A stretch of 39,480 nucleotides of DNA, from contig RDOA01000033.1 of NCBI GenBank assembly GCA_011364925.1, forward strand, positions 1 to 39,480, in the 5' to 3' direction. Positions within the stretch are counted from its first letter, which is position 1. Each line of letters begins with the position of its first letter. The position numbers were made by a program, and so were the translations under genes. Source of the DNA: Promethearchaeota archaeon. Its GTDB lineage: Archaea; Asgardarchaeota; Lokiarchaeia; Sigyniarchaeales; SOKP01. This document shows, in pieces, positions 4,530 to 37,528 of the stretch. The notes beneath the pieces were generated by a model. That model was not told where the DNA came from. It made no database searches and saw only the letters and a program-made list of their open reading frames with translations.

Positions 4530-5465
4530 ATGAGCAATAACTATTACTTAATTCTTGCTGGAGGAGTGGGTGCAGCAAAATTCATCGAAGGTCTTGCCAA
4601 TGTAGTCGACCCATCTCTGTTAAAGATTGTCATTAATACTGGTGATGATATTGAATTGTATGGTCTGAAAATTTGCCCCGATATCGATATAATTACTTAT
4701 ACCTTAGCAAATATAATTGATAAGCAGAAGGGTTGGGGCGTTCAAGATGAATCCTTTAATTGTTTAAATGCTTTAACAAAATTTTACGACTTTAAGTGGT
4801 TTAACCTAGGGGACAAAGATTTAGCAACTCACATCTTTCGAACTGATTTATTTAAGAAAGGTTATAATAAAACAGAAATTACATCGATAATTTGTAAAAG
4901 GTTAGGAATTAAATCTCAACTTATTCCAATGAGTAATGATGATGTTCAAACGTTTATTAGAACAAAAACAGAGACAATGCATTTTGAGAAATATTATATT
5001 AAATATCAATGCGAACCTGATGTATTAGAAATATCAATTCATGGCATAGACAAAGCAAAACCAGAAAAACATATTATTGAATATATAAAAGGAGCAAAAA
5101 AAATAATAATTTGCCCGTCGAATCCAATAGTGTCGATAGGGACAATATTAGGGTTATATGGGATTAAAAATGCTTTAAAAAAAGTAAAGCATAAAGTTAT
5201 TGGTATTAGTCCTATTATTGAAGGCGCAACGGTAAAAGGTCCGGCAGATAAATTAATGAAATGTCTTGGATTAGAAGTTTCTTGTATAGGAGTAGCGAAT
5301 TATTACAAAGAAATTTTAAGTCACTTTGTTATTGATAATAGAGACGGTGAATCAAAACCAGAAATTGAGGATTTAGGGATACATACTTACTGCTATGATA
5401 CACTAATGGATTCTATAGAAAAAAAGAAAGCTCTTGCTCAATTTGTTATTAATATTGAAGTTTAA
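4530..5465 (+). CDS. cofD: 2-phospho-L-lactate/phosphoenolpyruvate transferase CofD (FbiA)
   Basis: Motifs LAGGVGAAKF, NTGDD, ICPDID, WFNLGDKDLATH, PSNPIVSIG and GPADKLM; adjacent to cofE. Confidence 0.95.
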   Translation: MSNNYYLILAGGVGAAKFIEGLANVVDPSLLKIVINTGDDIELYGLKICPDIDIITYTLANIIDKQKGWGVQDESFNCLNALTKFYDFKWFNLGDKDLATHIFRTDLFKKGYNKTEITSIICKRLGIKSQLIPMSNDDVQTFIRTKTETMHFEKYYIKYQCEPDVLEISIHGIDKAKPEKHIIEYIKGAKKIIICPSNPIVSIGTILGLYGIKNALKKVKHKVIGISPIIEGATVKGPADKLMKCLGLEVSCIGVANYYKEILSHFVIDNRDGESKPEIEDLGIHTYCYDTLMDSIEKKKALAQFVINIEV

Positions 5466-5482
5466 CTCTTAAATCTAAAAAT

Positions 5483-6931
5483 TTATGTTGCTGTCTCTTG
5501 AATTTCAACTTCCTTTTCTTTTTCTTCTTCTACTTCTTCTTTTTTAACGTAATCTCCAACTGATGCTAATATCTCTTTAATTCTTCCTTCTTGTTGAAGT
5601 CGGATAATTAAATTTCTATGTTTTATTGAAGCAATAACCTTTGAGATTACCGGAAATAGAAGTATTAATGGGATTAATAAGATTATAATTACTTCTGGTG
5701 AATACATCGCAACACTCTCTGTGATCGCTGGAGGTAAACTGAAAACATGTTCCATAAACCATTTGGGATGAATTATTATGAAACTAATTATTACTAATAA
5801 ACCAAACCGAAAAATAAAATTCGTCGCCGTAGATGTCAGAAGACTTCTTGGCCTGGGTGCAGATGATCGAGCAGTTATAGTATCACGAGCTTCAGAATCC
5901 TCTCGAAACAGTTGATCTATATATCTTCCAAGTCTTCTGGTTTTTGAGGCAGCTGTTATCAATTTTTTTTCTTCTTCCTCTAATTTTCTTCTCTCAATCA
6001 TTTCCTTGACAAAAGAAAAAGTTTCCCCTGTTTTTGCGAAGAACTTACCGATCGTTGCTTTGTCTTCGATTTTTAGTTCTTGTCTTCTTGCCTTAGCTTC
6101 TTCCTTTATTTTGTCAACATTTGCAGTTATATAATGAGATTCGCTCTCCAATACGAGCAATTGAGCTTCTAATCTCAATCTTCTCTCTAAAGATGGTTTG
6201 GTAACTGTGTAAGTATAATTTATTTGAAACGCTAACTCTAAATACATATATGACGCAATAGCAAGAAGAATTACTGGACTACCGAAAAATTGAAAGATAT
6301 TATCGATAGGTATCTGTTTTAATGAGGGATCAAGCGGATCAGGTAGATTTTCCAAATCTGGTAGGGTTATATAAAAAAGTTTCAGCATATCTCTAAGCCC
6401 AAAAACCATTAGAGGAATTACCAGCATGAGTACAATAGAACCAATAACAATGATATCGCTTTTAGGGTCTGTTTTTAGAAATGCTTTGATTGCATAGATT
6501 ATAGCAATTATAAAAAGAATTTGAAATGCGAATAAATACAGGTTCTCACTAAATACTGTAAATTCTTGGCCGATATAATAAGGAAGGTCTAAAAATTTTG
6601 GTGTTTCCCCACCAGGGACATTAGGGAATGTAAACCATAAATTAAAAAGCTGTCTGAAGAAATCATCTACTAAAGTAAATAAATCTAGTGAAGCGGCAGA
6701 AAATAGAAGTGAGATGATAAATGCACAACCAATCGCAATGCTATATGCTACACCAAATACGATGTAAGTTGCAATATTTTTTAAACTATTGAAAAACGCT
6801 AGTATAGCGAGTTCTCCATCAGATGTAGTTAGAACAGTATCGAAATGAAATATTGAGAGGAAAATGAAGAGAATCCAGACAAAAATCAAGACATTTATTA
6901 TCTTTAAAACTAAAATATAATTTCTTGCCAT
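5483..6931 (-). CDS. Uncharacterised polytopic membrane protein (~7 TM) with a large charged helical loop; last gene of the MoxR cluster
   Basis: 482 aa ORF with about seven hydrophobic segments and a ~130 aa charged helical loop (LERRLRLEAQ...ERRKLEEEEKK); starts 2 nt after the DUF58 gene stop. Confidence 0.8.
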   Translation of the reverse strand: MARNYILVLKIINVLIFVWILFIFLSIFHFDTVLTTSDGELAILAFFNSLKNIATYIVFGVAYSIAIGCAFIISLLFSAASLDLFTLVDDFFRQLFNLWFTFPNVPGGETPKFLDLPYYIGQEFTVFSENLYLFAFQILFIIAIIYAIKAFLKTDPKSDIIVIGSIVLMLVIPLMVFGLRDMLKLFYITLPDLENLPDPLDPSLKQIPIDNIFQFFGSPVILLAIASYMYLELAFQINYTYTVTKPSLERRLRLEAQLLVLESESHYITANVDKIKEEAKARRQELKIEDKATIGKFFAKTGETFSFVKEMIERRKLEEEEKKLITAASKTRRLGRYIDQLFREDSEARDTITARSSAPRPRSLLTSTATNFIFRFGLLVIISFIIIHPKWFMEHVFSLPPAITESVAMYSPEVIIILLIPLILLFPVISKVIASIKHRNLIIRLQQEGRIKEILASVGDYVKKEEVEEEKEKEVEIQETAT

Positions 6932-25343: not shown

Positions 25344-27470
25344 TCAATCATCTTTATTAGTGAATTTAATCATATTGTTTTTAGGTTCATAAAGCGTTCC
25401 TTCTTTAATTAACTCATCTATGGCGTCTTTTATCCATTTTTCATCTAAATCATCTTCAAGGCTTAGAATTTGTACAATATTCTTCTTGTCTAATGATTTC
25501 CAATTATTATTTTCAAAAATTTCTTTTAATCTACTTAACATTTTATCAAGTTTGCTAATTGAACTTCTAGACTGACCAACTAAAATACGATCCATATCAA
25601 TTTTTCCTGTAGTTTCGTCATAACCGGTATCTTTTAGGAACCTTTTAAACAATTTTATAATTTCTTCCACATCACTCTTGACTACTTTATCTCTTAAAGC
25701 CATTTTGGCATAAGCTTCGGATAAACGAACAAGTGCATCTAGATTTCTTGCAAGAATGGAGACAATCGAGTCTTCGCTGTCGTATTTCCCTCGAAGGTCC
25801 AGATAGAACTCTTTTATTACTTCTTTAGCCTCTTCAGTTAACACGGGGAAGCAAGTTCTTCTCGCATGTTTGATGTATTTCTTTAACAAATCTCCTGGAA
25901 TAGGTGCTATTGCTCCTTTTTTACTATCAAAATTGTCATCTGTTCCAATCATTGAATTTTGGAGAATAAATTCTGCCATCTGTGCGTCATCAGAAGGATC
26001 TGGCCTATCTATGACAATGAATATCAGATCAAAACGAGATAAAAGCGATGGAGGGAGATGGATATTTTGTGTAGGTGTTTTATATCGATCATATCTTCCT
26101 GAACGCGGATTTGCTGCTGCAATAATTGCAGTTTGTGCTTTTAATGTAGCTACGATACCTGCTTTGGCAATACTTACGGTTTGTTGCTCCATCGCCTCGT
26201 GTAGAGCTGATCTATCGGCAGTATCCATTTTATCAAATTCATCTATCGCTGCAACACCACCATTTGCTAAAACTATTGCCCCAGCTTCAAGATTCATTTG
26301 ACCGGTATCTGAATCTTTTATTACAGCTGCGGTTAACCCAACGGCGGTAGAGCCTTTTCCAGAAGTATATAATCCGCGAGGTGAAACTTCAATAGCGCTC
26401 TTTAGAATTTCAGATTTACCTGTACCGGGATCGCCAACAAATAGAATATGGATATCCCCTCGTTTATACCCTCCACCTGGTCGTTTTTTCCTCGTTCCTC
26501 CAAAAAGACTTAAAGCAGTGGCCAATTTCAGATCATCTCTGCCGTAAATTATTGGAGAAATAGATCTAGCTATTTTTTTCTGTATCATTGGTTCTTTAGA
26601 TAACTTTTCAATCTCTCTTTTATCTTCTTTGGATAATTCTATGAAATCATCACTCTTATCTTCGGGATCAATATAGTTAATATCGACGAAGGTTTTGAAT
26701 AATGTACTATTTATACTTTTAGTCGATTGAGCCAAAACTGATCTATATATTCCCATAAACTTAACTCTATCACCCGGTTTTACAGTGTCAACTAAATTGT
26801 AAGTCAGAATTGCTTGAATTGATCTTGGTATTCTACCAGGTGGTAAATCTTCTGGGATTTCTTGGATCATAACGCTTTGCCAGTCAATAAACTCCGAATT
26901 CTTGGAGATCAAACGAAAATCTGCTTGAGATTTTGCTTTACATCTTGAATTTGAACAAAATTTAGGCCATCTAATTTTAGAAGTGATTTGAAGCACTTCA
27001 AAACGAGCACCGCAACTCAAGCACTCAAATTCTGCTTTCACTAATTTAGGGCGTATTGTTGAACTTCTAACCAGAATTCCTTTGGTCCATACGAGATTGT
27101 CAATATGTTTTGCTCTTAATCCTCTTAAAGCGATTACTAATGGACTTTTTTCATCTTTAGTTTTTATTCTCACGAAATATTCTTGATCAGTTAATTTTCC
27201 TGCTTGAAATTTCATTACATTTTTAAAAGCCTCTGTAGCATCTTCTATTAGTTCAATAGGATTCTTTTTAAGAAGATCGGCAATATCAGGGTTAAAAGCT
27301 AGTAAATCTTCATACAAAAATATTAATATGTTACCACCTTTAGAAAAAATATCGTTTATTTGGTCTTGATACTTATATTCTCCAGGTTTTTCTTCGAATA
27401 ATCTATAGAAATCTTCAAAAGACTGTATTTTGTTAATGGGAACACTAGGACTAGTTAATGGCGTTGTCAA
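25344..27470 (-). CDS. mcm: MCM replicative helicase
   Basis: Zn finger CLSC...CSNSRC, QEIPEDLPPG, GDPGTGKS, IDEFDKM, HEAMEQQTVSIAKAG, SRFD and a C-terminal winged helix. TTG start with GAAGTGA upstream; no intein. Confidence 0.97.
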   Translation of the reverse strand: MTTPLTSPSVPINKIQSFEDFYRLFEEKPGEYKYQDQINDIFSKGGNILIFLYEDLLAFNPDIADLLKKNPIELIEDATEAFKNVMKFQAGKLTDQEYFVRIKTKDEKSPLVIALRGLRAKHIDNLVWTKGILVRSSTIRPKLVKAEFECLSCGARFEVLQITSKIRWPKFCSNSRCKAKSQADFRLISKNSEFIDWQSVMIQEIPEDLPPGRIPRSIQAILTYNLVDTVKPGDRVKFMGIYRSVLAQSTKSINSTLFKTFVDINYIDPEDKSDDFIELSKEDKREIEKLSKEPMIQKKIARSISPIIYGRDDLKLATALSLFGGTRKKRPGGGYKRGDIHILFVGDPGTGKSEILKSAIEVSPRGLYTSGKGSTAVGLTAAVIKDSDTGQMNLEAGAIVLANGGVAAIDEFDKMDTADRSALHEAMEQQTVSIAKAGIVATLKAQTAIIAAANPRSGRYDRYKTPTQNIHLPPSLLSRFDLIFIVIDRPDPSDDAQMAEFILQNSMIGTDDNFDSKKGAIAPIPGDLLKKYIKHARRTCFPVLTEEAKEVIKEFYLDLRGKYDSEDSIVSILARNLDALVRLSEAYAKMALRDKVVKSDVEEIIKLFKRFLKDTGYDETTGKIDMDRILVGQSRSSISKLDKMLSRLKEIFENNNWKSLDKKNIVQILSLEDDLDEKWIKDAIDELIKEGTLYEPKNNMIKFTNKDD

Positions 27471-27500
27471 ACAAAATCACTTCGAAATTAATTTTGATGT

Positions 27501-27518
27501 ACCAAAAATATTTTTGGT
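27501..27518. promoter_or_regulatory. Perfect 18-bp palindrome upstream of mcm (possible operator)
   Basis: ACCAAAAATATTTTTGGT is its own reverse complement and lies 31-48 bp before the mcm start; function unproven. Confidence 0.3.
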
Positions 27519-27649
27519 GATATTTTAATTCCATATATTAACGATTTAAGCTTATTAAACAGAAAATAAAATTAGTTTGAAAAAAATAATGAGAGAGAAT
27601 TGATTTAGTGAAATACTCCGTGTATAGATTTAATAATACAAAAAGGGCT

Positions 27650-30600
27650 TTAATTCTCTTTTAATCTCGTTAGTACTCCACATATTACAGGATCTTGTGA
27701 CATTTCACATCTTATTTTAAGTAAGGAAATTACTCTTTTTTTTATGGTATCATCCTCATACCTTACTGTACGACCCAATATCCGAGCTATTGATTGCTGC
27801 GTTTCAATTGTAGATTCATCACTTAAATTTTTTAACAAGTTGGACAATATTTTGGTAATACCTCTTTTTTGAATGATTTCAACCATCACATCTATAGTAT
27901 TAGCCCTTACTTCTTTGCTTTCATCTGCAAGCAATAAAAGAATACTACTAAATATTTTATCTATATCTTCAATATTGTAAATTTTTAGGAGATTAACTGC
28001 ACCCTCTCTTACTTTTGAATCAGTACTTGTTAGATTATCCGAAACTTTTTTAAATGGAATTGAAATATCTGATATTCCATGTATTGATGATAAAAGATTC
28101 ATAGATGAGCGTCGAACCCAGCTTTTATTATCATCTATCAAATTTACTAGTTTTTTTATCACAATCTCCTTATTTTCAACATACTGAAGTAATTTTCCCA
28201 AACTATCCACAGCAGCATCCCTAACAATCCATTCTTCATCAATTAAACCAATATTTATTAAAGCATCAACAGCTGCTAGTGAATGTGTTTTTTCAACGTA
28301 ACCTAAGACTTTTGCACTAGTTTCTCTAATGAATGAATCTGAATCTGAAAGAAGTTCTATAATAAGAGGAACTGAAATTTGATCAGGTAATTTTTTTGAT
28401 ATTTCTAATAATGTTTTTGTTAGAACTATCCTTACTGACTGTTCTTGATTTGAAATGAAATTGAATATTCCTGTGAGAATTGGTTTTAGCGCTGAGGGTT
28501 TAATCTTTGAAATTTCAAGAATCAATTGAGAAGCTCTTTTCTTCACTTCTTTATCGCGATCTTGTAATAGAGTAATTATCAAATTTAAATCTAATAAACC
28601 AATGTAATCTTTTATTAACTCCTCTAATGATGATATTATGTTTAATTTAACCTCCTTATCATCTGAGCTTAAATATTCGATTAATTTAGGAATAACATCA
28701 GTTGGATATTTTTCACTTATTCTTGTTATTGTTTTAGAAATTATACCCTTCGAAATGTATTTTGATTCATCTTTTACTCTTAACAACTTATCAAGAATTA
28801 GATCAGGACTTTTTTTATAGTTGTAAACAATATTGTTTGAGATTCTTTCCTTTAGCACAGAATTTTCGAATTTTATAAAAATTAAAAAAGTAGTTAAGAT
28901 TTTTTCGGGGTTACTTTCCCATAATCTACTGAGAAGCGATAATATACTATCAATCGATTCAAGATTCTGAGTATCGATTTTATTAATAATCATATCAATG
29001 TCAATTGATTCTGGTTCTTCAGTATAATATTTCGTAAGCGCTAGAACAGAGTTTTTCCTTACATTGCTATCAGTATCTACCAAACCATCAAAAATAGGAG
29101 ATATAGGAATAGCGTTCTTTCTAAAATTTCCTAGTTTAGATACTACTTCAAAAATTGAAGCTCTTACAGAACTATTCGTATCACTCATCAATGGAATCAT
29201 AATATTGATAAGATTTAAGTCAATTTGGTTAAAATCAATATTTTTAAAGTTTTTAATTGCTGCTGCTCGAATATCTTTATTTTTATGATGTATTTTATTC
29301 AATATCATTTCAGTTGGAATATCCAATGAAAGGTCTGAAAAAAGATTAAGAATTTCTACTTGAACTGAGCTATTTGGGTCGTTAATTAAGCTCAATAGTT
29401 CAAATTGTTGAATTTTTTCTCGTTTAATAAGCGCGAGTCTTTTAATTATTTTTATTCCTATTAATTTCATTCGCCATTCAGAATCAGAAATTAAATTACT
29501 GATAACACTAGGAGGAACTTCTTTAATTAGATTATCATCCGCGTCCATTAACGATTTAGCAATAGGTATACTCATATCGTAGTTAGGAGATTCAATGGAA
29601 TCTATTATCCAAGGTAATATTATATCTGGTACAGCCTTTCCTAATTTTGTGAAGATTAAATATGATGTCTCTCTTGCGTACTGATTTGAATCACTCAATC
29701 CATCCAATAATGAATTTTTAAATTTCCAATTGTTTAGAGCAAGATCTTGTTTTAAAGGAATTCGTTCGTACATCATTAATAATGTGTCTTTTGCATGCCT
29801 TCTCAGCGTAGGATCAGAACTTTTTACAAAATTGAAGAGTGGAATCGCATCAAAAGTTTGACCGTATTCAGTAATTTTGGAGAATTTAAGGTTTTTTGTG
29901 AATTCATTATTTTTTGACAGGAAATAATATGAAGTAAAAACAATCATGCATATTTCTTCAATGACTGCCGCCCATGCGAACATTTTAAAGTTAGGAATAA
30001 TATTGACGGTAAATGCCCAAAAATTAAAGGTTTCCGTTAGTTTGACAGAATTTACTATCAAAAAGTTAATTAATACATTAATTCCAATCGCAGCCATCAA
30101 ATAAGCTGCGAAATAGATATCTATCCCTCTATATTTGATTTTTCTTCCCCAAAATCGCGTAAAATAACCAATTATTCCAAATAAGAGCGTAACAAACACA
30201 AAATAGGAAGTCATTGTTGAAATTCCGAATGATCCTGTAAAAAAGAAAATTATCGTCTGAAACAAGGATATCCATGCCCATACAAAAACAAAAATCATTA
30301 AACCTAAGAAAATGTATGATTTAGGATTTGATACGAATTGTTTCATGCCTCTTTTACTATTCTCAAAGTTTAGAAATAATGATCTCTTAATATCGGGTAT
30401 GTGATAATACTCATTACTAATCCCTGCTATATAGCCTTTAGATCCATAAAAGGTTAATATCATTAAGGGGTAAACGAGTAACCAAGAGATCCATATAATT
30501 AAAAAAGGTATACCAGTAAAGGAAATTAATAATGGAGGAATTGAAAATAAAAAATAGAGAAGAAACGCCATACTGATTGAAATTACTTTATTCTTTGAAA

Positions 30601-31003
30601 TATTAATAATGTTATGGCTGATAAATCTATGAAATGGTGTTAAACCTTCATCAGTTTCTGGGCTTAGTGCAATATATAGGAAGTCAACTAAAGGATAGAG
30701 GGAGATATACCCTAAACAAAAAGTAAAAGGAAGAAGCAAAGAAAGTTTTAATGTGTCTGGAGGAGTTAAAGAACTTCCTTGCCAAAATTCAGGAGTTTTC
30801 ACTGTAAAAATAAATGCCATTGCTATCACTACCATAACACTAGCACTAAAGATAAGTCCATAAATTACACACTGAAGGCGATCTTTGTTACTAAATTCCC
30901 CTTTTTTAACTAAGGCAACTTGTCTATAAATTATAACAAATCCAATTATGAAAAAAACAATAAAAATTATAAAAAGAATAAGTTCTAGGAGCAAGTTATT
31001 CAC
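27650..31003 (-). CDS. Polytopic membrane protein (~9 TM) fused to a long HEAT-repeat alpha-solenoid
   Basis: About nine hydrophobic segments in the first ~360 aa, then ~750 aa of repeats such as LISDSEWRMK, LINDPNSSVQ, LMSDTNSSVRAS, LVDTDSNVRKNS, LIDEEWIVRDAA and LADESKEVRAN. GTG start. Confidence 0.85.
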   Translation of the reverse strand: MNNLLLELILFIIFIVFFIIGFVIIYRQVALVKKGEFSNKDRLQCVIYGLIFSASVMVVIAMAFIFTVKTPEFWQGSSLTPPDTLKLSLLLPFTFCLGYISLYPLVDFLYIALSPETDEGLTPFHRFISHNIINISKNKVISISMAFLLYFLFSIPPLLISFTGIPFLIIWISWLLVYPLMILTFYGSKGYIAGISNEYYHIPDIKRSLFLNFENSKRGMKQFVSNPKSYIFLGLMIFVFVWAWISLFQTIIFFFTGSFGISTMTSYFVFVTLLFGIIGYFTRFWGRKIKYRGIDIYFAAYLMAAIGINVLINFLIVNSVKLTETFNFWAFTVNIIPNFKMFAWAAVIEEICMIVFTSYYFLSKNNEFTKNLKFSKITEYGQTFDAIPLFNFVKSSDPTLRRHAKDTLLMMYERIPLKQDLALNNWKFKNSLLDGLSDSNQYARETSYLIFTKLGKAVPDIILPWIIDSIESPNYDMSIPIAKSLMDADDNLIKEVPPSVISNLISDSEWRMKLIGIKIIKRLALIKREKIQQFELLSLINDPNSSVQVEILNLFSDLSLDIPTEMILNKIHHKNKDIRAAAIKNFKNIDFNQIDLNLINIMIPLMSDTNSSVRASIFEVVSKLGNFRKNAIPISPIFDGLVDTDSNVRKNSVLALTKYYTEEPESIDIDMIINKIDTQNLESIDSILSLLSRLWESNPEKILTTFLIFIKFENSVLKERISNNIVYNYKKSPDLILDKLLRVKDESKYISKGIISKTITRISEKYPTDVIPKLIEYLSSDDKEVKLNIISSLEELIKDYIGLLDLNLIITLLQDRDKEVKKRASQLILEISKIKPSALKPILTGIFNFISNQEQSVRIVLTKTLLEISKKLPDQISVPLIIELLSDSDSFIRETSAKVLGYVEKTHSLAAVDALINIGLIDEEWIVRDAAVDSLGKLLQYVENKEIVIKKLVNLIDDNKSWVRRSSMNLLSSIHGISDISIPFKKVSDNLTSTDSKVREGAVNLLKIYNIEDIDKIFSSILLLLADESKEVRANTIDVMVEIIQKRGITKILSNLLKNLSDESTIETQQSIARILGRTVRYEDDTIKKRVISLLKIRCEMSQDPVICGVLTRLKEN

Positions 31004-31110
31004 AATAATTTTTGGAATATTAATATTTTAATATATTTATATTTCTGTTGCTTTACATATATTTAGTTTATAGAAGAATTGAATACTATTTAAATGTGGT
31101 GTGATAAGAG

Positions 31111-31671
31111 TTGAATAAAATTGAAATCCAATTAGAAGATTCCTTAAATCGAGTGAATTTTATTTTTAAAAATGGAGAAGTAACAACTGAGAGTATTAGT
31201 GATTATAATGGGTTTTCAATATTAGGTGAATCGTTTGGACCATTTGAGAAAGGGAAAAAATATAGACTTCCATATTTCATAGCTCTCCCGTTGATCGAAA
31301 ATAACATAATAAAGATAGATTCAAAGGAAAAGTGTGATAACACTGATGTTCAAAGATATGCTATAAGTGAACGAGACGAGCAGAGCCTTTTACATAGAGA
31401 GAATAAGTTTTTCTTAAACAAAATAAGGGAGTTTAGATTTTTAATTGAAAAAGATGCAAATGACAACAAAATTCCTAAACTCGATTTAGATCGGTTCAGT
31501 TCATATTTTATTAATATTGTCGATAATAGATTACTCAAGCTTTTAAAGTTAGCTAAATCTAGTTTATCTTTAGACGACGAGAGAAAGTTAACTGATTCCG
31601 AAAAGTTATTGTTTTCCAAGCTTTTTGAAATTATAAGAACATGGAGAAATTTCTTTTTGACTAAAAATTAG
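31111..31671 (+). CDS. gins23: GINS complex subunit, Gins23/Psf2-like (B-domain first)
   Basis: N-terminal beta domain FGPFEKGKKYRLPYFIALPL, helical domain with RLLKLLKLA and LTDSEKLLF; length 186 aa; close to mcm; TTG start with GGTGTGA upstream. Confidence 0.8.
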   Translation: MNKIEIQLEDSLNRVNFIFKNGEVTTESISDYNGFSILGESFGPFEKGKKYRLPYFIALPLIENNIIKIDSKEKCDNTDVQRYAISERDEQSLLHRENKFFLNKIREFRFLIEKDANDNKIPKLDLDRFSSYFINIVDNRLLKLLKLAKSSLSLDDERKLTDSEKLLFSKLFEIIRTWRNFFLTKN

Positions 31672-32396: not shown

Positions 32397-32915
32397 TTAA
32401 TCTTTTAGAAGTAAGTATTCTTTACGCGCTTTAGCGTACTCTTCTCCACTAATAGTGCCTGCTAAAAATTCTTTTTCCTTCTTCTGCATTATTTTCCTTT
32501 TTTCAGCTAATTGCTTTTTTCTTTCCGCTTTATCAAAGTTTTCTATAATTGGTTTACAGAGGACATTTAAAGTTTTATCTCCTTTTTTCATCAAGTTTTC
32601 AACATATGGCTTAATTGGTTTTACCAGTTCAATATTTTTTTTAGCTAATTCTTCTATTCGACTAAGTGCTTTACTTATTTCCTCTTGATCGTTACCATCA
32701 AGGACATTAATTAATCCAGGGATGGCAACATCTCTGAGCACTTCATCAAGATACTGCTCAATATCCTTCTTTAATTTATTATCATCATAAGTATTTAGTT
32801 GATTATTGCGAACATATTCAATAAAAATTAAAGGCAATTCTATTGGCCATTCTTTCATTTTATCCTTACTAATTAACTGGACGATTCCACCATCATTTTT
32901 ATGAAATATTTTCAT
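32397..32915 (-). CDS. Uncharacterised helical protein with a HEAT-like hairpin and a C-terminal SHOCT-like motif
   Basis: AIPGLINVLDGNDQEEISKAL (HEAT-like) and FLAGTISGEEYAKARKEYL (SHOCT-like); GAGGT RBS; packed between top6A and pyrE. Confidence 0.7.
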   Translation of the reverse strand: MKIFHKNDGGIVQLISKDKMKEWPIELPLIFIEYVRNNQLNTYDDNKLKKDIEQYLDEVLRDVAIPGLINVLDGNDQEEISKALSRIEELAKKNIELVKPIKPYVENLMKKGDKTLNVLCKPIIENFDKAERKKQLAEKRKIMQKKEKEFLAGTISGEEYAKARKEYLLLKD

Positions 32916-34135: not shown

Positions 34136-37100
34136 TTATATTAACTTCCAATGCTTTTTCCCCATTTTTGATTCAGTTAAAACTAAACCCTTGCGTTCCA
34201 ACTCTTTTAGTTTAATTTGTAAAAATCGAGCATCCATCATGTCTTTAATTTTCATCTTAAAGATTAACGCTGTGATAGGTTGCCATTCATTAGAGAGTGC
34301 TTCTATTATTTTATCTGTAGTAATTATTGGTAATTGAGTTTGAGTCAGTTGAGGTTGAGGTGGTTGAACTTGTGATTTTAGAACTTTTTTTTCAATAACT
34401 TGTGGTTCTGCTTCCCCTTTCGCTATTTGTAATTGTTTTCGTTTTTCAGCAACAGTTCCAGGTTTAACGGGTATAACTTCTAATGGTTCCTTTAACTCTT
34501 TAATTGAGGGTACGATTTCTTCAGGTTTTCCTTTCTTATAAAATTCTTGAATGATTTTGATAATGTCTTCCTTCCGAACTTTAGATGGTATTTCTATACT
34601 GTTTTCTGAACAGTATTCTCTCAATTCTTCAATTGTCCAATTCCGAAGGGTCTTTTCTGTTAAAACCTCATGGCTAGGTTCTCTTATCTTAGGTGCAACT
34701 TCTTCTGTTTCTTTTGTGTCTTCCCATTCGATTTCGACTTCTTTATGGATTTCTCTTTCTATTCCCTCTTTTTGAGCAGGAGGTTTCCTTACTTTAATTT
34801 TAGGAGGAGCTTTAACGCCAATCGCATCTTTCATTAATTTCATTAATTCCTCTTCTGAAATTTTTCCTTTATATCTACTTTCGCCTTGTGAAACGATGTT
34901 GTAAGCACTTGAAACAAATTGAGGTATATATCTTTCGATTAAGCCTGCTCTCTTCTCACTTTTTCGAATACTTGCTTTCCTATTAAGATATACTCTGAGC
35001 CGTCTTCCTATTGCTTCGAGACAATATTTTATTTCTTTGAGTAAATCCTCGTCTTCAGCTAATGCATTTTTTGATTGAGATTTAAACATTAAATGAACAT
35101 AGGGTCCGGAAACATTTACCATAAGCTTGATTGGGCCCTTTGGAAGATTGTTATCGTATGTATCTAATTTATAATTTTTCCAATTGACCGATTGAACAGC
35201 TTTAGTGATAGCGCAATCAGCACTATCTCTTAGTTTGGGAGTTCTGTTTACAAAACGAGATAATACATCTCTAGATCGTTTGGGAGTATCAAGTTTTCTT
35301 GGATCATTGCAATATGCCATAGCAGCTTCAACCACATAAGCTAAGCCTTTTCCTGACGTTGGAGGTCTTGTTTCTGCGTTCACGAAATCATCGTCTCTGG
35401 TGTAATTTACAGTGAAGTACTCAAAAACATCTTGATATGAGTCTTTCAACACTTCAGTTGACAAAGATATCTTTTTTTGAATTGTTTGTAGAAATTGATC
35501 TGGTTCTGAAAATTGGTCTTTTATGTCAACATTGGCTAATATTTTCGAGTTAAAAATTTTAATATTATCAACATCTATAATCTCATCTTCGATAGTTTCA
35601 GGCGTTATTGATAATTTTTGTTTTTCTTTGTCCTTTTTTCTTTTATCTTGCAATATTTCTGCTGAAGTTTTAAGACTTTCTATAGGATCATCGAAATAGT
35701 CGACATTATCCGAAATCTTAAGTCCAATTTCTTTAATTAAAGTGCTTTCTAAAACAATATCTCCAACAGGAATAGCCGTATCTGTTGGAGGATTCATATA
35801 CTTAATCGATTTAAAAGCGTGAAAGAGAGTATTGAATTGTTCGTTTGTTAATTCTGATGGTTTCGCCTTTGAAATTTGAACTTCATTCACCACATCTTCC
35901 AGTTCGGTACGATTTTTTATTTTTTTAGCTTCAACCAACCCCGAATTGGCAGTAAAAATCTTTTCTAAAGTACTTTTAATTTTTTCTCTTTCTAAATAAA
36001 TTGCATCTATCTCTTTTATTACTTTATCAATTTCTTTTTCTATTTTCTTTTCGTCTTTTTTAGTTTCAGATTTTTCTAATCGATTTTGATGTTTTTTGAT
36101 TTCGTTATCAAATTTATCTAATGCTTTGTTTGAATGATTGTATTTCTCCATAGCTTCCCAATAACTATTCTTCAACTCTTCAGAATCGACACTGTAAATT
36201 ATTAATTTATCACGAGGCTTTGTCGAACGTCCAAAAACTCTTTTTTCGAACTTAAAGTAATAAATGTCATCAGTTTTTTTCGTTAATTTGTTTACAAACC
36301 CACTATTAAGAATTAAAACAGATAGTTTTTCTTGTAAACTCCTTTCAGCAATATTAAGAATCTCTTTCGCAGTTTTTGAACTCATTCTTACAAAATTATC
36401 TTGTAAAAAAGCTGAGATTGACAAATTTTCTGATTTTGTTAAGAGATCTTGTAAATCCCCTATATTTATTGATGATGGATGTGGTTTTGCATATTTTGGT
36501 TGTTTGGGAAAACTTGAAACTAACCTTCTGTAAATCCATTCTTTTCCGGAGGGATCAATAAAAATTATTGTGATGTGTGGGTTCATTAATGCCGTTTCAT
36601 TAATATATGTGTCAACGTAACCCCTAACATATTTTACATTTAAATAATTCAATTTAATGTAAGTTCCGTGTAGAAATTGACTATCGACTTCAGTTGGGCG
36701 AACTAGATATTTCTTTTCGTTTTTTGAAGTCGTAAAGAATTCTGAAACTGTAGCGTAGATAGAATCCTTAGATTTTGATACTGCAACAATGGGTTTTCCA
36801 GTTGTATTTTGAGCGTCACTAAAAGCACTTGGAGCACCGAACCCTTGACTTCCACGAGTTTGTTTCAATTCAACGCTTTTTGAAGAAGCAAGGTATTTCC
36901 CATATTTACGTAAATCAGTTTTATGCATTCCTATTCCATTATCGAAGATTTCAAATGTATAACTCATCACATTTTTTTGTGATAGTTCAGATGTTAAAAA
37001 GGATGCGGCTTCAAATTCTCTTAGTCGAATTATAACAAGAGGTTCAATATCTACAATTGGTTCAACAGGTTTAATGATCTCGTTCATATCTTCTATAATT

Positions 37101-37528
37101 CGTCTTACCTCTTCTTCAACCTCGAGTTCTTCTTTATCAACAATCTCACCCGATTCTTCATCTTTATCCGAATGTACAACCAACTCTTTTTCGGAGGGTT
37201 GGGTTGATGTTAACCCAATTTCCTGCATAAGCGCCAACTTTGCTTCATTATTTAAAGGTTGGCCAACTTCATCTTTTCTTGCCTCCTCAAGGATGGACAA
37301 ATTCTCTAATGATAATTCTTGGTCTAGAGAGAATTTAATTCTTGATTCCTCATCTTCTAATTCTTGCCATTGGAATTCTTCAATCGCGTCTAACGCGTTA
37401 TCGAGAAATTCTGATACGTATTGCTGGTGCTTCCAATATCCAAACTCAAAGCCTACTAATTGCGTTCGCTTTCTCATAAATTGGGCGATTGTACCTTGCT
37501 TTATTCTGCCTTCTTCATCAGATTCCAT
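34136..37528 (-). CDS. top6B: DNA topoisomerase VI subunit B, with large insertions and a C-terminal extension
   Basis: GHKL motifs EFLDNALDA, DNGIG, RGSQGFG and HGT; NPH, KPHP, RFVNRTP, NWKNY and transducer FKSQSK; adjacent to top6A. Confidence 0.93.
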   Translation of the reverse strand: MESDEEGRIKQGTIAQFMRKRTQLVGFEFGYWKHQQYVSEFLDNALDAIEEFQWQELEDEESRIKFSLDQELSLENLSILEEARKDEVGQPLNNEAKLALMQEIGLTSTQPSEKELVVHSDKDEESGEIVDKEELEVEEEVRRIIEDMNEIIKPVEPIVDIEPLVIIRLREFEAASFLTSELSQKNVMSYTFEIFDNGIGMHKTDLRKYGKYLASSKSVELKQTRGSQGFGAPSAFSDAQNTTGKPIVAVSKSKDSIYATVSEFFTTSKNEKKYLVRPTEVDSQFLHGTYIKLNYLNVKYVRGYVDTYINETALMNPHITIIFIDPSGKEWIYRRLVSSFPKQPKYAKPHPSSINIGDLQDLLTKSENLSISAFLQDNFVRMSSKTAKEILNIAERSLQEKLSVLILNSGFVNKLTKKTDDIYYFKFEKRVFGRSTKPRDKLIIYSVDSEELKNSYWEAMEKYNHSNKALDKFDNEIKKHQNRLEKSETKKDEKKIEKEIDKVIKEIDAIYLEREKIKSTLEKIFTANSGLVEAKKIKNRTELEDVVNEVQISKAKPSELTNEQFNTLFHAFKSIKYMNPPTDTAIPVGDIVLESTLIKEIGLKISDNVDYFDDPIESLKTSAEILQDKRKKDKEKQKLSITPETIEDEIIDVDNIKIFNSKILANVDIKDQFSEPDQFLQTIQKKISLSTEVLKDSYQDVFEYFTVNYTRDDDFVNAETRPPTSGKGLAYVVEAAMAYCNDPRKLDTPKRSRDVLSRFVNRTPKLRDSADCAITKAVQSVNWKNYKLDTYDNNLPKGPIKLMVNVSGPYVHLMFKSQSKNALAEDEDLLKEIKYCLEAIGRRLRVYLNRKASIRKSEKRAGLIERYIPQFVSSAYNIVSQGESRYKGKISEEELMKLMKDAIGVKAPPKIKVRKPPAQKEGIEREIHKEVEIEWEDTKETEEVAPKIREPSHEVLTEKTLRNWTIEELREYCSENSIEIPSKVRKEDIIKIIQEFYKKGKPEEIVPSIKELKEPLEVIPVKPGTVAEKRKQLQIAKGEAEPQVIEKKVLKSQVQPPQPQLTQTQLPIITTDKIIEALSNEWQPITALIFKMKIKDMMDARFLQIKLKELERKGLVLTESKMGKKHWKLI

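Follow-up and report, generated by a model that had tools for sequence, protein, structure and literature searches.

HEAT-repeat proteins of Asgard archaea are routinely counted as adaptin-like evidence of proto-trafficking. Wells et al. pointed out the likeness of lokiarchaeal HEAT proteins to adaptins and Hawks (PMC5228436), and the study of Candidatus Lokiarchaeum ossiferum lists 'adaptin N heat repeats domain' with the trafficking signature proteins (PMC9834061). Adaptin- and condensin-like HEAT clusters, but no transmembrane forms, are mentioned in a 2026 preprint about solenoid proteins of Asgard archaea (PMC13734099). The closest described counterparts of the gene considered here are the bacterial NTT/Npt-HEAT proteins, in which a polytopic membrane domain is followed by cytoplasmic HEAT repeats, and an Asgard asCOG architecture (polytopic N-terminal membrane domain plus HEAT) with members in L. 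ossiferum and Promethearchaeum syntrophicum. We analysed a gene that matches the asCOG architecture, hereafter TM-HEAT (transmembrane, TM, domain plus HEAT repeats), in a 39,480-nt stretch of a Promethearchaeota archaeon (contig RDOA01000033.1 of assembly GCA_011364925.1; Lokiarchaeia, Sigyniarchaeales), the whole of which we refer to as the window. The TM-HEAT family occurs in only one order of Lokiarchaeia, where it is near-universal, and its linkage to the replication gene gins23 suggests a membrane link to DNA replication.

The gene is a single open reading frame (ORF) on the minus strand, spanning positions 27650..31003 exactly and encoding 1117 amino acids between a GTG start and a TAA stop. 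A TTG follows three codons after the GTG, GTG/TTG is kept in close relatives, and the frame is closed by a stop codon 24 nt before the start. Since more than 260 full-length homologues were found, each 1100–1135 residues long and 55–96% identical, the gene is not a chance ORF. Kyte–Doolittle hydropathy gives eight clear hydrophobic segments (residues ~5–26, 46–68, 86–113, 141–160, 162–184, 228–248, 260–281, and 294–317) and a weaker ninth (~335–360). An AlphaFold2 model of the first 400 residues, built from a 36-sequence alignment (the window protein and 35 homologues), shows nine long helices coinciding with these segments, as well as short amphipathic cytoplasmic helices (predicted local distance difference test, pLDDT, 84.7; predicted template-modelling score, pTM, 0.83). 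The four predicted inner loops carry 5, 3, 7, and 5 Lys and Arg residues, and three of the outer loops 2, 0, and 0, which supports a predicted N-out/C-in topology of the TM domain (residues 1–365, 29909..31003, minus strand) and places the HEAT array in the cytoplasm. The two are joined by cytoplasmic linker helices (residues 366–397, 29813..29908, minus strand) with a conserved F-x-P-I-P-L-F-N at the junction of TM domain and solenoid.

The remaining ~720 residues (398–1117, 27653..29812, minus strand) form the HEAT solenoid. In the full-length AlphaFold2 model (pLDDT 85.2, pTM 0.51), 44 helices over residues 398–1116 make up ~20 HEAT repeats, and Pfam matches over residues ~440–1100 comprise HEAT (PF02985; 1.5e-33, 112 bits against a cut-off of 23.5), HEAT_2 (PF13646; 2.6e-31, 108 bits against 27.7), Cnd1, Adaptin_N, and further HEAT-clan families. 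The same Pfam scan of the window protein returned no match in the TM domain, no enzymatic and no cNMP-binding domain. The first-pass annotation, made from the letters of the window, had described about nine TM helices with Lys/Arg-rich alternate loops, a long cytoplasmic HEAT array, and neither kind of additional domain, and this description agrees with the hydropathy, modelling, and Pfam results; the basic loop sequences that it cited all occur in the translated protein. Despite the shared layout, the bacterial NTT/Npt-HEAT proteins differ from TM-HEAT in several respects: they have twelve TM helices rather than nine, and many of them carry a cNMP-binding domain, whereas TM-HEAT has no TLC or MFS match (Pfam at E ≤ 10 for 18 aligned members and at E ≤ 1 for 10 more; NCBIfam) and no bacterial members.

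The distribution of the family was assessed by two scans. With a single TM sequence as query against 300 genomes sampled across the phylum, matches were confined to the window's own order (66/68 genomes in the taxonomic family labelled f1 and 7/7 in f2, against 0/226 in other families). With a profile query against all 161 genomes of the class Lokiarchaeia, matches were again obtained throughout this order (f1, 123/134; f31, 1/1; f2, 14/14; f32, 4/4) and in none of the genomes from other orders (f3, 0/2; f4, 0/3; f33, 0/2). In the class scan, 39 of 40 high-quality genomes had a match, and the misses within the order were mostly incomplete genomes. Contrary to the wide bacterial spread that the first-pass annotation had named as an argument against its own interpretation, homologues were found only in archaeal metagenomically assembled genomes (MAGs), nearly all labelled as Promethearchaeota or Asgard lineage. 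Members identified by exact look-up include Candidatus Lokiarchaeum ossiferum B-35 (NEF87_002892), Promethearchaeum syntrophicum MK-D1 (QEE15025.1), and Candidatus Harpocratesius repetitus. Both cultured Lokiarchaeia (L. ossiferum and P. syntrophicum) thus carry the gene, which makes the question of its function directly testable.

The gene order around TM-HEAT departs from a widespread archaeal pattern. Pairing of gins23 with mcm has long been known in Crenarchaea and Thermococcales (PMC2643942). In 20 other families of the phylum, gins23 lies less than 5 kb from mcm in 20/20, and directly upstream on the same strand in 17; a sister order of the same class also retains gins23 followed by mcm. 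The window's order has gins23 in the inverse orientation, with TM-HEAT transcribed divergently from it across ~70–110 nt; alignment of these intergenic regions showed no shared regulatory motif beyond TATA-like AT-rich boxes. In the window itself, gins23 (GINS family; 31111..31671, plus strand) is separated from TM-HEAT by 107 nt of AT-rich DNA with TATA-like boxes in both directions (31004..31110), while mcm (25344..27470, minus strand; 708 residues, no intein) follows TM-HEAT on the same strand after a 179-nt gap (27471..27649).

In a FastTree phylogeny, the gins23-linked proteins form clades A, which includes the window's protein, and A', apart from clade B and a long-branched clade C; the deep branching and the placement of clade C in this tree are not secure. 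The divergent gins23/TM-HEAT pair was present in 23/23 clade A/A' loci, at protein identities down to 22% and in three arrangements. In family f1, the pair precedes mcm within a conserved block of Top6B, Top6A, a 172-residue ORF, and a PRT-like gene, with mcm directly downstream of TM-HEAT on the same strand in every genus examined. In family f2, the pair is kept in 8/8 loci, including those of L. ossiferum and MK-D1, while the remaining local synteny is lost and mcm lies megabases away or on another contig (in Harpocratesius, TM-HEAT is at 0.55 Mb and mcm at 3.40 Mb). In family f32, whose proteins are ~22% identical to the window's, one locus (L085) has mcm and gins23 converging, with TM-HEAT divergent from gins23, and a second (L086) has only a C-terminal mcm fragment, ~0.7 kb from gins23. 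Both f32 loci were found with an alignment-based contig scan; a contig scan with P0154 gave no match. The position beside replication genes from which the first-pass annotation argued is thus conserved, with the qualification that the invariant neighbour is gins23 and not mcm, adjacency to the latter being found in one family of the order (f1) and, differently arranged, in a second.

A second conserved pairing was observed for the paralogues of clade B, which are 1172–1221 residues long in the genome loci examined (up to 1289 among database representatives) and occur in most f2 genomes examined and in at least one f1 genome. In 9/9 loci, the clade B gene is preceded on the same strand by a gene for a DUF4332 protein of ~260 residues (L045, 7501–8286; L050, 3509–4285; L080, 6668–7333; L081, 3817–4458; L082, 2330–3067; L084, 24–833; L089, 6524–7306; L092, 3443–4228; L093, 3555–4346). 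The two genes are 0–1 nt apart or share a base where exact ORFs were listed, and elsewhere lie within ~150 nt as judged from the ends of tblastn hits. The DUF4332 protein, for which no relative was found among PDB sequences, has further matches to TfoX_C, HHH_5, and Cdd1, which correspond to tandem helix-hairpin-helix modules. The pairing is present in MK-D1 and, as two separate pairs, in L. ossiferum; the window's genome contains neither a clade B gene nor a DUF4332 gene. Genomes of f2 additionally encode very divergent TM-HEAT paralogues of 1477–2037 residues (L083, 5903–12283; L095, 2455–8833; L094; L096; L097). Two clade C paralogues in Harpocratesius follow BacA, one of them (L083) with a DAGK/YegS lipid kinase gene as well, and a distant L. 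ossiferum paralogue adjoins an acyl-CoA dehydrogenase gene, the BacA neighbourhood not being kept there.

Sequence conservation is unevenly distributed along the protein. The TM domain is better conserved than the HEAT solenoid in 35/35 homologues compared (for example, 69% versus 48%), and conservation is highest in residues 281–320 (30044..30163, minus strand) and in the final ~37 residues. The former stretch comprises a basic cytoplasmic loop, RFWGRKIKYR, with the invariant W285 and K290, followed by TM8 with N309 and N313. Most of the representatives examined from clades A, A', and B share three motifs: Y-P-[LC]-x-[DE] in TM3, [RK]-[FY]-W-x-[KR]-K-x-K in the loop between TM7 and TM8, and N-x-x-x-N-[FY] in TM8. 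Residues G21, P104, P179, W285, and K290 are invariant in the 36-row alignments, and polar residues recur family-wide inside TM3, TM8, and TM9 (D/E107, N309, N313, and an I-E-E motif). The C-terminal element (residues 1081–1117, 27653..27763, minus strand; K-x-R-V..L..R-C..S-Q-D-P-x-I-C) is by contrast restricted to the gins23-linked clades A and A', its motif K-x-R-V..R-C..S-Q-D-P-x-I-C being absent from the clade B and C representatives examined. The greater conservation of the TM domain and its polar motifs indicate that this domain is more than a mere anchor, and it appears too conserved for a passive one. Of the membrane-tethered scaffold envisaged in the first-pass annotation, the combination of membrane domain and solenoid thus stands, whereas the word 'tether' understates a conserved, motif-bearing TM domain.

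Taken together, the gins23 pairing of clades A and A', the helix-hairpin-helix pairing of clade B, and the clade-specific C-terminal element make a docking platform embedded in the membrane, serving partners in replication or otherwise associated with DNA, the most economical reading. We put its probability at only about 0.4, because what goes beyond architecture and linkage (the identity of the partner, DNA binding by the DUF4332 protein, the activity of the TM domain, and tethering itself) is inferred. On this reading, the nine-helix domain would sit in the membrane with the ~20-repeat solenoid in the cytoplasm, and the solenoid, together with the C-terminal element in the gins23-linked clades, would bind a partner that acts in replication or on the chromosome, with GINS23 or the CMG helicase as the leading candidate. 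For clade B, the partner would be the putatively co-translated DUF4332 helix-hairpin-helix protein, itself predicted to bind DNA. The partner, or DNA held by it, would in this way be positioned at the membrane. The TM domain, with an acidic residue in TM3 and two Asn residues in TM8, probably binds or conducts a lipid, ion, or small molecule, or assembles with membrane proteins, and may couple the state of the membrane to the cytoplasmic partner. A docking role of this kind is plausible.

Several observations weigh against a docking role at the replisome. The link to the replisome is one of gene order only, and the solenoid itself gives little hint of a nucleic acid or replisome contact, its charge being near neutral (105 Lys/Arg versus 107 Asp/Glu over residues 318–1117) and no recognisable DNA- or replisome-binding motif being present in it. 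TM-HEAT and mcm are 160–340 nt apart, and the gap in the window contains T-runs right after the TM-HEAT stop and a TATA-like box; mcm is hence probably transcribed separately from its own promoter, and the two genes are probably not co-transcribed. Overlapping promoters can hold a short divergent pair together without any functional tie. In f1, the whole block from Top6B and Top6A to mcm is syntenic, and conservation there may reflect inertia. The distant paralogues, of clade C and others, lie beside unrelated genes (BacA/DAGK, acyl-CoA dehydrogenase, transglutaminase) with no conserved context. Finally, curated asCOGs place this architecture under intracellular trafficking and not replication.

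Of the competing explanations, the one that survives best, and that we nonetheless regard as somewhat unlikely, is that TM-HEAT is a transporter, channel, or membrane sensor whose HEAT repeats form a regulatory or partner-binding appendage, as in bacterial NTT-HEAT, and that its adjacency to gins23 is an accident frozen by a bidirectional promoter. Such a function would account for the TM domain being the best conserved part, for the family-wide polar residues within TM3, TM8, and TM9, and for a number of helices far exceeding what an anchor needs. Some databases also label homologues as 'MFS transporter'; this label proved unsupported, no MFS family appearing in the Pfam scans of the 18 and 10 members. 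More generally, no transporter family was recovered from Pfam, NCBIfam, or PDB sequences, even at E ≤ 10. NCBIfam returned no match to the TM domain of the window protein, the Pfam scans of the TM region gave only scattered chance matches (DUF7176 in 4/18 members at E ≥ 0.029, TrbC, and NSP4_N), and a search of PDB sequences with the TM profile at E ≤ 10 gave one chance match (E 1.1).

Structure-based searches gave no secure match to a known fold. An ESM Atlas search returned nothing above 0.79, and the best Foldseek match of the TM model in the PDB had an E-value of 0.26, with template-modelling scores (TM scores) not above 0.2; LacY, MCT1, and VMAT were listed only at E > 0.5 and a TM score of ~0.1. 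Exhaustive alignment of the TM model against 48,161 PDB representatives with VIA placed human SERINC3 (7rug_A) at the top with a Z-score of 9.1 (root-mean-square deviation, rmsd, 6.9 Å over 226 of 315 residues, 8% identity), 2 Z units above the second match, Hrd1 (Z 6.9), and VIA re-scoring of the top 999 Foldseek chains gave a maximum Z of 5.1. As helical bundles need a Z of ~13 to be trusted, the SERINC3 match is a lead rather than an assignment, and it is not a classical transporter. No recognisable transporter fold or family, which the first-pass annotation had considered as a possible outcome, therefore emerged from Pfam, NCBIfam, the PDB, Foldseek, or VIA. The accidental adjacency required by the transporter explanation also accounts poorly for two conserved pairings (gins23 and DUF4332) and for a gins23 pair that survived three rearrangements.

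The same domain is not found on its own. A phmmer search over 1.84 billion representative proteins gave 62 clusters, all belonging to the TM-HEAT family, with the full-length ones 1100–1290 residues long. Among proteins of 220–700 residues, the TM profile found 27 matches, which we read as fragments of the fused family because those with a name carry the label 'partial' and most of the matches come from short contigs. To judge from these searches, the TM domain is known only in fusion with HEAT repeats and constitutes a family of its own.

An adaptin- or coat-like scaffold for trafficking or membrane remodelling, recruiting cargo or cytoskeleton, is what the asCOG label and the class of eukaryotic signature proteins imply, and we consider it quite improbable. 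In its favour, Pfam Adaptin_N (PF01602) matches residues 636–900 with 52.8 bits against a cut-off of 37 and Cnd1 (PF12717) matches residues 578–704 with 62.2 bits against 26.4, and lokiarchaeal HEAT proteins have been reported to cluster with clathrin adaptors and Hawks (PMC5228436). Both Pfam matches, however, overlap generic HEAT matches and so express likeness at the level of the clan. The solenoid resembles karyopherin-beta2, SF3B1, CAND1, TBCD, and adaptin and condensin trunks in length and in having ~20 HEAT repeats (Foldseek E ~1e-12), but the top fold matches (karyopherin-beta2, SF3B1, CAND1, and TBCD) reach TM scores of only 0.2–0.37 at 10–15% identity, as for a generic long HEAT solenoid, and the eukaryotic proteins are soluble. 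Unlike karyopherin-beta, TM-HEAT has no IBN_N match in Pfam and begins with the TM domain, the karyopherin-beta2 fold match being generic (TM score 0.22). Unlike large adaptin subunits, it ends in HEAT repeats with no appendage (ear) domain in Pfam, and no small or medium (sigma/mu) adaptin-like gene was present among the neighbours scanned. With regard to the HAWK proteins of condensin and cohesin, the Cnd1 match is a cross-match within the HEAT clan, and none of the adjacent genes in the window encodes a kleisin or an SMC protein.

Very improbable, finally, is a SERINC-like lipid-handling protein (a scramblase or lipid carrier) with a cytoplasmic scaffold, for which SERINC3 as the clear best fold match, the shared ~9–10 TM helices, some of them long, and the position of the Harpocratesius clade C genes after BacA (at one of the two loci also with the lipid kinase) would speak, but the structural likeness lies within the chance range for helical bundles, no PDB sequence (SERINC chains included) matched at E ≤ 10 beyond the one chance hit, neither Serinc nor any other credible Pfam family was detected, and L. 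ossiferum does not retain the BacA neighbourhood.

Returning to the docking platform, its most far-reaching form would be that, in Lokiarchaeia of this order, dedicated membrane-embedded HEAT solenoids physically attach the replicative helicase to the cell membrane by way of GINS23, and that paralogues paired with helix-hairpin-helix proteins do the same for chromosomal DNA. We regard this form as unlikely. If true, it would provide a prokaryotic counterpart of the membrane–chromatin and replication tethers of the nuclear envelope, and genes at present classed as 'adaptin-like trafficking' signature proteins would have to be assigned to chromosome biology. Eukaryotic membrane tethers include LEM/HeH inner-nuclear-membrane proteins and membrane-anchored Rif1, which has a HEAT-repeat N-terminal domain. 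The resemblance to these is one of principle only (a membrane protein holding DNA or MCM regulators, and in clade B one with a helix-hairpin-helix partner), and homology is not claimed. What sets TM-HEAT apart is that it is wedged into an otherwise near-universal gins23–mcm pair and that a predicted DNA-binding protein accompanies its paralogues. A functional link would make the family a rare archaeal membrane-anchored adaptor of the replisome or chromosome and would bear on a pre-nuclear origin of membrane–chromatin contacts; should the link not be functional, TM-HEAT still represents a nine-helix membrane domain, uncharacterised and near-universal in one order.

In the literature searched, the architecture is catalogued but uncharacterised. 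The supplementary ortholog table of the L. ossiferum study (PMC9834061) contains, directly after the GINS23 group, a group with the same architecture that L. ossiferum and P. syntrophicum share, filed in category U (trafficking) and treated as a eukaryotic signature protein of the adaptin type. Judging from its position in this table, which has no gene identifiers, the group (ORTHOMCL769) would correspond to TM-HEAT. HEAT goes unmentioned in a 2025 paper on how the Asgard replisome evolved (PMC12680538). Among the papers searched, none discusses the TM domain, the restriction to one order, or the gins23 and DUF4332 links, and the accessions of the TM-HEAT proteins from the cultured organisms appear in no main text. 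The TM domain is a new one, and the robust gins23 link goes undiscussed in this literature.

We also made several minor observations on the neighbouring genes. GINS23 proteins of the window's order match the NCBIfam Gins23 model at E-values of 1e-4 to 1e-15, compared with 1e-14 to 1e-28 in most other families. This may reflect faster evolution after the inversion; low scores are not unique to the order, as two further families of the phylum also score low. Matches to mcm are split into two or three pieces in many relatives across the phylum, at loci L034, L037, L041, L042, L053, L054, L057, L058, L061, L064, L069, and L085, and in L085 the interruption is an intein, confirmed by Intein_splicing and LAGLIDADG matches. 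In L086, located in the closed f32 genome JBGLND010000001.1, the mcm fragment (4646–5515) encodes 290 residues comprising the end of the P-loop domain, the lid, and the winged helix, and ~0.85 kb upstream of it the other strand carries a GH38 mannosidase gene; the fragment may be what is left of the ancestral neighbouring gene, or part of a split gene. In the gap upstream of the window's mcm, a 16-nt perfect palindrome, CCAAAAATATTTTTGG (27502–27517, ~30 nt upstream of the mcm start), was considered and set aside, as it occurs once in the window and no more often than in shuffled sequences.

One MAG (G180) contains two full blocks of Top6, gins23, TM-HEAT, and mcm (L041 on contig C91 and L042 on C29), each with a TM-HEAT protein ~50% identical to the window's; this bin, with a stated contamination of 5%, probably mixes two strains or species. 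Top6B in the window (34136–37528, minus strand) encodes 1130 residues with Rho_N/SAP-like matches near the C-terminus, and its length is kept across f1, at 55–66% full-length identity where the locus is complete. The ORF of 172 residues (32397–32915, minus strand), which has no family match, begins 0–16 nt after Top6A and adjoins it in all f1 genera, even in L036, where the remaining block has moved, so that it may be an unrecognised accessory gene of Topo VI.

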